Source: Candidatus Saccharimonadia bacterium
GTDB taxonomy: Bacteria; Patescibacteriota; SICC01
DNA: 64,000 bases
Assembly: GCA_025449535.1 (NCBI GenBank)
Contig: JANWJF010000001.1
Location: forward strand, 741,136 to 805,135
Direction of reading: 5' to 3'
Below the pieces are notes generated by a model. The model worked only from the letters and a program-made list of their open reading frames with translations, had not been told where the DNA came from and did no database searches. Below are positions 19,296 through 20,011 of the stretch, piece after piece. The stretch's first letter is position 1; the number at the start of each line of letters is the position of its first letter. Made by a program: the position numbers and the translations under genes.

Positions 19296-19481
19296 TCATC
19301 CGGCGGCGAGTGCCTCGAAGGCGGCGATGAGGACGACGATGACGATGGCGAGTGCCACGACGATCGCGAACGTCCGCGGGGTGACCAGGGGCTTGTCGGT
19401 CGGTTCGTCTTCCTGGCAGGACGCCCGGCGCTCGAAGCGGTTTTCCGGGGGCTCATGGAAGTGTTCGTGGTTGTCTTCCAC
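19296..19481 (-). CDS. small single-TM protein P4 (61 aa, GTG start)
   Basis: Hydrophobic segment FAIVVALAIVIVVLIAAF; 4 nt downstream of the P3 stop. Confidence 0.4.
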   Translation of the reverse strand: MEDNHEHFHEPPENRFERRASCQEDEPTDKPLVTPRTFAIVVALAIVIVVLIAAFEALAAG

Positions 19482-19485
19482 GGCG

Positions 19486-19596
19486 CTACCGGTCCTTCGC
19501 GGGAATCCACTCGTCGGGGTAGTCGTCGCGGTTGACGACGACGGCCAGGATGGCCATGACGATCGCGATCAGCGCGATTTTCTTCCGGTTGCTCAT
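19486..19596 (-). CDS. small single-TM protein P3 (36 aa)
   Basis: RBS AAGGAG 7 nt upstream of ATG; sequence MSNRKKIALIAIVMAILAVVVNRDDYPDEWIPAKDR. Confidence 0.5.
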   Translation of the reverse strand: MSNRKKIALIAIVMAILAVVVNRDDYPDEWIPAKDR

Positions 19597-19676
19597 TCGT
19601 GCTCCTTGTTCGGCAGAGGCCTGGGCTACCAGGCGGCCTCCGGATAGTACGGCAGCCTGGGTGCCGCTCGGCAGAC

Positions 19677-19841
19677 CTAGTGGTCGTGTCTGTGGGACGG
19701 TTCGTCCGTCAGGTCCCTGATCGCGTAGCCGATGGCGCCGGCCACTACCAGGGAAACCAGGAAGAAGAACCGCTTCGTCTTCTTCCACTTCTTTTCGGGC
19801 TTTCCGGGCCCGTCCGGTACTGTCGCGGGCGACTCGCTCAC
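19677..19841 (-). CDS. small single-TM protein P2 (54 aa, GTG start)
   Basis: RBS AAGGAG 7 nt upstream of GTG; KKWKKTKR followed by TM FFFLVSLVVAGAIGYAI. Confidence 0.45.
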   Translation of the reverse strand: MSESPATVPDGPGKPEKKWKKTKRFFFLVSLVVAGAIGYAIRDLTDEPSHRHDH

Positions 19842-19915
19842 GTTCGATGCTCCTTCCGGATTGAGGGGTCCTCGCCAGGGGACGTTCCTCGGATTTTCGG
19901 CACCTGGCATGCCGT

Positions 19916-20011
19916 CTAGCAGGCGCCACCGAAGTGGATCGCCAAGCCAAGGATGGTGAAGAGGACGGCTCCGCCAAGGAGCGCCCAGCACAACTCCGAG
20001 AACTTCCGCAT
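19916..20011 (-). CDS. small single-TM protein P1 (31 aa)
   Basis: RBS GGAGGT upstream; sequence MRKFSELCWALLGGAVLFTILGLAIHFGGAC. Confidence 0.45.
   Translation of the reverse strand: MRKFSELCWALLGGAVLFTILGLAIHFGGAC

Follow-up and report, generated by a model that had tools for sequence, protein, structure and literature searches.

A candidate operon of four small single-helix membrane proteins, set between terminators, in a Candidatus Saccharimonadia genome

Do four very short open reading frames (ORFs), arranged in tandem on the minus strand of the genome of an uncultured Candidatus Saccharimonadia bacterium (Patescibacteria), encode proteins, and if so, of what kind? The ORFs, called A, B, C and D from upstream to downstream, occupy positions 19296-20011 of a 64,000-nucleotide (nt) stretch of contig JANWJF010000001.1 (assembly GCA_025449535.1, positions 741,136 to 805,135). 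This whole stretch is referred to as the window, and all coordinates are window coordinates unless stated otherwise. A preliminary description had regarded the four ORFs as an operon of single-pass membrane mini-proteins and had offered bacteriocin or toxin-like peptides and small membrane regulators as possible identities. The best explanation, favoured by a modest balance of probability, is a terminator-bounded polycistronic operon of four small bitopic membrane proteins that serve as subunits or modulators of a membrane complex. The ORF structure, the coding signal and both terminators were directly observed, as was the conservation of A, B and D. Among the identities offered earlier, small membrane regulators or subunits would be the most plausible.

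All four ORFs are on the minus strand. A (19916-20011) starts with ATG and encodes 31 amino acids (aa), MRKFSELCWALLGGAVLFTILGLAIHFGGAC; B (19677-19841) starts with GTG and encodes 54 aa; C (19486-19596) starts with ATG and encodes 36 aa; D (19296-19481) starts with GTG and encodes 61 aa. The spacers were 74 nt (A-B), 80 nt (B-C) and 4 nt (C-D). Canonical Shine-Dalgarno (SD) sequences were present at the correct spacing: GGAGG for A, AAGGAG for B and C (5 nt from the ATG in C) and a weaker GAAGGA for D. Each ORF had one hydrophobic stretch of transmembrane (TM) length, with Kyte-Doolittle maxima over 19 residues ranging from 1.74 to 3.18 (A 2.31, B 1.74, C 1.92, D 3.18). The coordinates, sizes and spacers, the single hydrophobic helix per ORF, the two GTG starts and the three strong SD sites given in the preliminary description were thereby confirmed. 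However, its claim that all four genes were unannotated or below gene-calling thresholds was incorrect: GenBank lists B (HEY8108555.1) and D (HEY8108554.1) as hypothetical proteins, and the JGI and Logan gene callers had independently called each of the four ORFs.

The four products differed in layout. A was practically a single TM helix with an N-terminal RK and an invariant His within the helix. B had the N-terminus PDGPGKPEKKWKKTKR (net +4), followed by the TM segment and a C-terminal tail with acidic residues and His, and C ran from MSNRKK through the TM segment to the acidic tail NRDDYPDEWIPAKDR. Because of the K/R-rich N-termini and the acidic tails, B and C are predicted to adopt an N-in/C-out topology with their acidic tails outside. 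In D, the N-terminal 37 aa were acidic and included a conserved ERRAxCQ motif, and the TM segment was C-terminal, so that the protein looks tail-anchored. With its GTG only 4 nt past the stop of C, D is probably translationally coupled to C. Pairwise comparison of A-D, including three mini-ORFs of another contig described below (L044), revealed no similarity beyond the hydrophobic segments, which ruled out that A-D are paralogues of each other or orthologues of the L044 set. Over 35 nt, the TM-coding DNA of C (19534-19568, AIVMAILAVVV) matched that of D (19335-19369, AIVVALAIVIV) at 74% identity. A partial duplication of D might have given rise to C; the likeness is also expected from common GC-rich hydrophobic codons.

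A codon log-likelihood (LLR) model, for which the window's long genes were the training set, was used to measure coding potential, and 126 spurious ORFs within real genes served as the control. B, C and D scored 0.48, 1.04 (the highest) and 0.60 bits/aa, respectively, all above the 99th percentile of the spurious ORFs (0.39), and their codon usage was on par with that of housekeeping genes. The score of A was weak (0.20 bits/aa) and below the control percentile. None of the 126 spurious ORFs combined an LLR of at least 0.2 with a TM-like segment. When the analysis was slid along the locus, the top-scoring frame changed from A to B to C to D precisely at the ORF borders. All overlapping alternative ORFs on both strands, including one of 163 aa and one of 123 aa, scored negative. 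The G+C content of third codon positions was not discriminating, as 52% of the spurious ORFs reached at least 0.84; it was insufficient because the antisense frame has third positions in common.

Folding revealed a terminator on either side of the four genes. Downstream, an intrinsic terminator (19225-19274) made of an A-tract, a GC-rich stem of 13 base pairs (bp) and UUUUUGG lay 22 nt past the stop of D (-39.5 kcal/mol, z=-4.73, 0 of 200 shuffles); it can also serve a convergent 83-aa gene. Upstream, a terminator-like hairpin (20242-20290, minus strand) followed a 190-aa gene whose stop is at 20307 (-36.1 kcal/mol, z=-4.77, 0 of 200 shuffles), with the stem followed by UUUCUUUG, setting this gene apart from the mini-protein operon. 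The presence of terminators on both sides indicates that the four genes form a unit of their own rather than extending the 190-aa gene. Together with the frame-specific coding signal, this upheld the earlier view of the tandem genes as an operon. A consensus scan of both strands of 18800-20500 found no sigma-70-like promoter, a consensus that does not cover promoters of the Candidate Phyla Radiation (CPR). The same scan missed both terminators, the one at 20242-20290 because its apical stem is interrupted.

Conservation was assessed in a single informative relative. An exhaustive HMMER search with D against 1.84 billion representatives returned one homologue (P0018, 65 aa, 60% identity, E=8e-9), located on a short contig of an ENA metagenome assembly (L048); three more assemblies were identical to this contig where they overlapped. 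It carried orthologues of A, B and D in the order of the window, followed directly by the orthologue of a 169-aa gene (71% aa identity). A was the most conserved member, with 27 of 31 residues identical (90% aa and 93% nt identity over the aligned stretch) and a near-invariant 33-nt stretch, ATCCTTGGCTTGGCGATCCACTTCGGTGGCGCC. The B orthologue (56 aa, 57% aa identity) retained the GTG start and AAGGAG and carried two in-frame indels of 3 nt, and both internal indels of D were 9 nt long. Start codons and SD sites were kept for A, B and D; the four indels inside ORFs (B and D) were all multiples of three, and spacer indels measured 1-3 nt. The ratio of nonsynonymous to synonymous change (dN/dS) was 0.36 for D, 0.43 for A (seven differences in all) and 0.52 when pooled. 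The differences in D showed a third-position bias (15/10/26 by codon position). LLR values in L048 were 0.39 per aa for A and 0.54 per aa for B. Since A, B and D occur together in two species, they most likely form one module. Whether a related genome conserves the peptide ORFs had been proposed as a check; it does for A, B and D, and C was missing.

The comparison also settled the start of B. Some gene callers used a 77-aa form starting at an ATG at 19910; the extension scored negative, and L048 has ACG at this codon and a frame-breaking 2-nt indel, establishing the GTG start. An origin of the ORFs as pseudogene fragments was rejected, as L048 keeps the ORF partition, starts and SD sites and no frame matched any family. 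The differences in a variant contig (L050) were poly-C end artefacts of a contig with 1.8x coverage, which was discarded. Contig DATBQH010000004.1 (GCA_036560925.1, 'Patescibacteria group bacterium' at NCBI) and the JGI/Logan contigs of the same population were matched by exact sequence; as 100% identical copies of the window, they were not counted as conservation evidence. Relatives were rare in other collections as well. The 190-aa protein and a 353-aa protein flanking the operon had two and three homologues, respectively, among 5.8 billion proteins. No relatives were found in JGI metagenome scans with the 353-aa protein and with an alignment of A, B, D and the 169-aa protein, nor in a scan of a viral collection with A.

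A different set of mini-proteins was found on the Logan contig L044 (SRR27977660), which carries homologues of the 190-aa protein (49% identity) and of the 353-aa protein (354 aa, 68%). Between these two genes, just upstream of the 190-aa homologue, where the window has a 198-aa paralogue of the 190-aa gene, L044 contained three tandem TM mini-ORFs of 34, 42 and 57 aa (contig positions 2034-2482) with positive coding scores and SD sites. They ended in a terminator of their own, GCCCTTGCGG...CCGCAAGGGC CTTTTCT, and showed no detectable sequence similarity to A-D. The architecture therefore recurs, as L044 has its own mini-protein set next to the 190-aa homologue. A small-membrane-protein operon beside a Cys-rich anchored protein is thus a recurring but fast-changing feature.

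Several observations weigh against an operon of complex subunits or modulators. No partner complex was identified, no recognisable target gene is adjacent, and all neighbours of the mini-protein operon are orphans except a BI-1 gene. In L048, the junction of D with the 169-aa gene lacks BI-1 and the 83-aa gene next to it. C is absent from L048 as well, where the B-D gap measures 84 nt. D scored 0.04 bits/aa in L048, and B was near-neutral (dN/dS 0.78, with 18/12/15 differences by codon position). At the nt level, spacers (81-83% identity) and A (93%) were more conserved than the coding sequences of B and D (70-72%). The synonymous sites of A were unusually conserved, with a proportion of synonymous differences (pS) of 0.13 compared with 0.35-0.52 in B and D. 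The high conservation of the spacers and of A points to RNA-level constraints beyond a protein model. In addition, the dN/dS values and the covariation come from one pair of sequences, the window and L048.

Some of these features would be expected of young, lineage-restricted 'proto-genes', which are transcribed, perhaps translated, near-neutral and without any specific role; GC-rich DNA readily gives rise to hydrophobic helices, and the membrane tolerates them. The family is extremely rare, with one D homologue in 1.84 billion representatives and empty JGI and viral scans. C was found in the window's genome only and is absent from L048; the equivalent neighbourhood of L044 has three unrelated mini-proteins; and dN/dS was 0.78 for B and 0.52 for the pooled genes. 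However, the A protein was 90% identical between genomes whose 169-aa orthologues were at just 71%. Starts, SD sites and gene order were conserved, indels were in frame, B, C and D had the codon usage of housekeeping genes, and the set has dedicated terminators. On balance, proto-genes are an unlikely explanation, though one to be taken seriously.

The conserved non-coding parts raise the question of whether RNA is the main product, that is, a transcript of about 0.85 kb with conserved structured elements in which the short ORFs are partly incidental. The spacers and the element after D were indeed more conserved than the coding sequences of B and D, and compensatory changes occurred in several hairpins. 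The A-B spacer (83% identical to L048) contained two hairpins on the minus strand, one directly after the stop of A (19898-19914) and one at 19863-19890; among their 14 pairs, there were two compensatory double changes and two single compatible changes. The B-C spacer (81% identical) contained a GC-rich hairpin, GGAGGCC...GGCCUC (19616-19641, minus strand), which was kept in L048 with eight pairs in both species, seven of them unchanged and one G-U/G-C. As these pairs were nearly unchanged, this hairpin provided no covariation evidence. L048 also retained the terminator at 19225-19274, whose main stem differed by two compensatory double changes (C-G/U-A swapped). The spacer hairpins were unique in the window, which rejected them as repeats or repetitive extragenic palindromic elements. 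The low pS of A fits an RNA product too. By contrast, there was no match in Rfam even at E <= 1, the frame-specific codon signal stopped at the ORF ends, SD sites and start codons were conserved, and in-frame indels were confined to the ORFs. The hairpins were also of the ordinary terminator and intercistronic type, and most of the single-sequence z-scores of the spacers, including those of the A-B spacer, were not significant. A mainly RNA product is thus very unlikely.

The leader of the operon was also structured. The 143-nt leader folded at -65 kcal/mol (z=-3.48, 0 of 200 shuffles) and contained an imperfect hairpin of about 30 bp (20108-20181, minus strand). The L048 contig stops 68 nt upstream of A, so that the comparison does not reach this hairpin, which is possibly a site of RNase III cleavage or other processing, a translational block or a DNA operator. 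A doubtful 25-aa ORF, ORF0 (20020-20097, minus strand, MWPHVPVICPLAYVIGPLADRLTRR), with the very strong SD-like sequence GGAAAGGAGGAG, was not supported as a fifth gene: its LLR was -0.12/aa, it had no positive frame signal, it was not conserved in L048, and it was outside the protein collection. Its SD-like sequence GGAAAGGAG is the 3' arm of the leader hairpin and hence sequestered, a further reason for doubting this ORF, and its stop overlaps the SD of A. ORF0 is at most a sequence-independent upstream ORF.

Searches against known families gave little. Pfam and NCBIfam returned nothing above threshold for A-D; the best matches, B12D (E=0.05) and DUF7139 (E=0.03), were far below the cut-offs. 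No hits were obtained in PADLOC, and in PHROGs A, B and D had no hit while C weakly matched (E=0.0055) one family whose function is unknown. A tblastn search of the mini-proteins against phages and plasmids was empty, and profiles of known small membrane protein families (KdpF, CydX, AcrZ etc.) did not match. The class III signal peptide of type IV or Flp pilins (G|FTLxE or G|xxxxEY) was found in none of A-D, nor was there any N_methyl or Flp Pfam hit at E <= 1. By contrast, A, B and D had all the properties of generic small bitopic membrane proteins, namely a coding ORF of fewer than 100 aa, one TM segment and a conserved ORF; C shared the coding signal and the TM segment and had no orthologue in L048.

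The earlier suggestion of a bacteriocin cluster was not supported. Like class II or two-peptide bacteriocin loci, the locus has tandem genes for small hydrophobic peptides, and FSELCWALLGG in A superficially recalls the double-glycine leader LSxxELxxIxGG. However, this sole GG of A is shifted by one residue from the leader register and falls within the only hydrophobic helix, and B, C and D have no such leader. Unlike those loci, the neighbourhood has no C39-ABC exporter, immunity or quorum-sensing genes: no C39 peptidase or ABC exporter and no immunity gene was found among Pfam matches of the called genes within 10 kb on either side, the scanned neighbours and the large ORFs of the 64 kb, nor was a modification enzyme found in the flanks or the large window ORFs. 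No family hit was obtained. A bacteriocin-type cluster, with A as a double-glycine peptide, is therefore close to refuted.

Membrane-active toxic peptides would act differently, by depolarising or permeabilising the membrane as type I toxin-like, holin-like or abortive-infection proteins, perhaps as part of a variable island with defence-type cargo in relatives. Type I toxins such as Hok, TisB, Ldr, Ibs and BsrG are short hydrophobic membrane peptides (PMC12648545), and in size (single TM segment, fewer than 60 aa) A, B and C resemble them, with D at 61 aa. The mini-proteins also share with them a short single helix, lineage restriction, rapid sequence turnover and a structured 5' leader, whose long hairpin hides a ribosome-binding sequence. 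Gene content after rpsG varies, with ParE/Phd in one relative (L045) and, in the window, a DndB-like gene. However, type I toxin mRNAs are translationally inert and monocistronic with a masked ribosome-binding site, and the operon here encodes four different peptides with exposed canonical SD sites, the one masked SD being that of the doubtful ORF0. The opposite strand had no promoter-like site for an antisense RNA by the sigma-70-like consensus, which does not cover CPR promoters, and no antisense RNA gene was detectable by that scan or in Rfam, although one may be present. The neighbourhood lacked lysin, spanin and phage genes, so the holin context was absent as well; the surroundings are core ribosomal genes and not a mobile element. 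Apart from the weak PHROG match of C, no PADLOC or PHROG hit and no phage or plasmid homologue spoke for a toxin. Toxic peptides are accordingly quite unlikely, and this part of the preliminary description was not supported either.

The nearest architectural match to the mini-protein operon is found among photosynthetic genes. The psbE-psbF-psbL-psbJ genes of photosystem II and petG, petL and petN are co-transcribed cistrons for single-helix subunits of about 30-80 aa that form one membrane assembly. Like these, the mini-protein operon consists of consecutive small one-helix cistrons. Unlike them, it shows no sequence similarity in Pfam or NCBIfam, and co-assembly is suggested by the co-conservation of A, B and D. 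To our knowledge, photosystems are absent from CPR bacteria. The closest functional class comprises KdpF, CydX, AcrZ, MgtS/MgtR and SafA, which are small membrane modulators of larger complexes (PMC12648545). The mini-proteins resemble this class in size (31-61 aa), single TM segment, N-in orientation by the positive-inside rule and likely insertion through the signal recognition particle (SRP) with YidC or Sec. However, members of this class are usually encoded by single genes in or beside the target operon, whereas four unrelated genes in a terminator-bounded operon of their own are found here. The locus is thus a previously undescribed but ordinary small-protein operon that resembles no known toxin or bacteriocin.

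For a set of subunits or modulators, the following sequence of events is proposed. Each cistron would be translated from its own SD, with D probably dependent on coupling to C too, and the conserved intercistronic stem-loops probably stabilise mRNA segments or adjust how much product each cistron yields relative to the others. The products would insert post-translationally into the cytoplasmic membrane via SRP with YidC or Sec, a route established for proteins of such size (PMC12648545). There, A would be a bare helix, B and C would lie N-in/C-out, and D would be tail-anchored with a short acidic domain. A, B and D would act as one module, serving a membrane or cell-envelope complex as small subunits or modulators and not acting as secreted or lytic peptides, and C would be a recent addition specific to the lineage. 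Translation, topology, co-assembly and the accessory-subunit role are the parts of this scheme that we infer. A more specific form of it, which we rate as improbable, has A, B and D, with C as an add-on, as a hetero-oligomeric microprotein assembly of a rare high-GC Patescibacteria lineage. It would form a minimal channel or a helix bundle binding a metal or cofactor, with its stoichiometry set by the intercistronic hairpins, which would be more strongly constrained than the proteins, and would belong to a fast-evolving host-interface envelope toolkit together with the Cys-rich anchored proteins. The invariant intramembrane His of A and the conserved Cys of D, beside the acidic tail, are the features that suggest it.

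Annotation systematically under-represents small membrane proteins, and CPR/Patescibacteria are rich in orphan membrane proteins with unknown roles in episymbiosis. The locus is a compact example, with four cistrons, two terminators, conserved hairpins, one gain or loss (C) and a BI-1/83-aa insertion that can be dated against the sister lineage, and it could be a test case for the origin and turnover of micro-protein operons. It opens no long-standing question and holds no mechanistic surprise. Its practical value lies in a corrected annotation that recognises the four genes as real, starts B at GTG and leaves out a fifth ORF, and from which the bacteriocin and toxin labels can be removed.

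A 64% G+C content was found for the 64-kb window. The mini-protein locus lies in a run of housekeeping genes, with rpoB, rpoC, rpsL and rpsG upstream and fusA, tuf and the S10 operon downstream; PheST, GyrBA and a 16S rRNA gene follow further along. The str operon is split, with about 9.2 kb of mostly orphan genes between rpsL-rpsG (15797-16739) and fusA (25997-28099), and the mini-protein operon sits within this rpsG-fusA interval, whose size is unusual. The interval contains genes for the 250-aa and 169-aa proteins, BI-1, the 83-aa protein, the four mini-proteins, two Cys-rich anchored proteins, the 353-aa and 179-aa proteins, His_Phos_1, the DndB-like protein and DUF2188. The cargo after rpsG differed among relatives: L045 had a Phd/ParE pair, NUDIX and DUF4234, and L046 had the 353-aa homologue immediately. 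In this lineage, the post-rpsG stretch looks like a hot-spot of variation. An AlphaFold model of the 169-aa neighbour was unusable (predicted local distance difference test, pLDDT, 47).

The operon had been placed between BI-1 and pilin-like genes, which was partly correct. BI-1 and the adjoining 83-aa gene, which encodes a TM/coiled-coil protein, lie at 18138-19198 on the plus strand, and the 83-aa gene intervenes between D and BI-1, convergent to the operon. BI-1 matched the Bax1-I Pfam family (E=2e-57). As both genes are absent from the D-to-169-aa junction of L048, they represent an insertion in the window's lineage. This insertion fits the closest BI-1 relatives among 185,000 species genomes, which were from Desulfobulbus (54% identity, without synteny) and suggest that BI-1 is foreign to the locus and horizontally acquired. 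The terminator after D was kept despite the insertion and now faces the convergent 83-aa gene.

The 'pilin-like' label on the other side was doubtful. The 190-aa (20307-20879) and 198-aa (21116-21712) genes, both on the minus strand, encode paralogues with 31% identity and six conserved Cys, and their N-termini do carry a prepilin-like K/R...G|F(T/I) motif. However, an L045 homologue had a lipoprotein signal in place of this motif. The AlphaFold model of the 190-aa protein (pLDDT 77) showed a TM helix and an all-alpha domain with no beta-sheet, and a structure search of this model against PDB gave zero matches, pilins included, and thus no functional lead. On this model, the pair are extracytoplasmic proteins, anchored and Cys-rich, rather than canonical type IV pilins.

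Two further single-helix mini-proteins (46 and 48 aa; 29066-29206 and 29210-29356, minus strand) are encoded in tandem upstream of a 272-aa orphan gene, in the stretch from fusA to tuf. They are paralogues of each other, with a BLASTP E value of 2e-5 and the common motif ER.L..ITGLV.A.G, and both had strong SD sites and positive coding scores. Spacers of unusual length follow the 16S rRNA gene (59307-60775) up to tRNA-Ile (61954) and tRNA-Ala (63163), the region spanning 59307-63238. They contained two ORFs, one of 281 aa (61131-61976) with no Pfam hit, the end of which overlaps the start of tRNA-Ile, and one of 107 aa (62820-63143).

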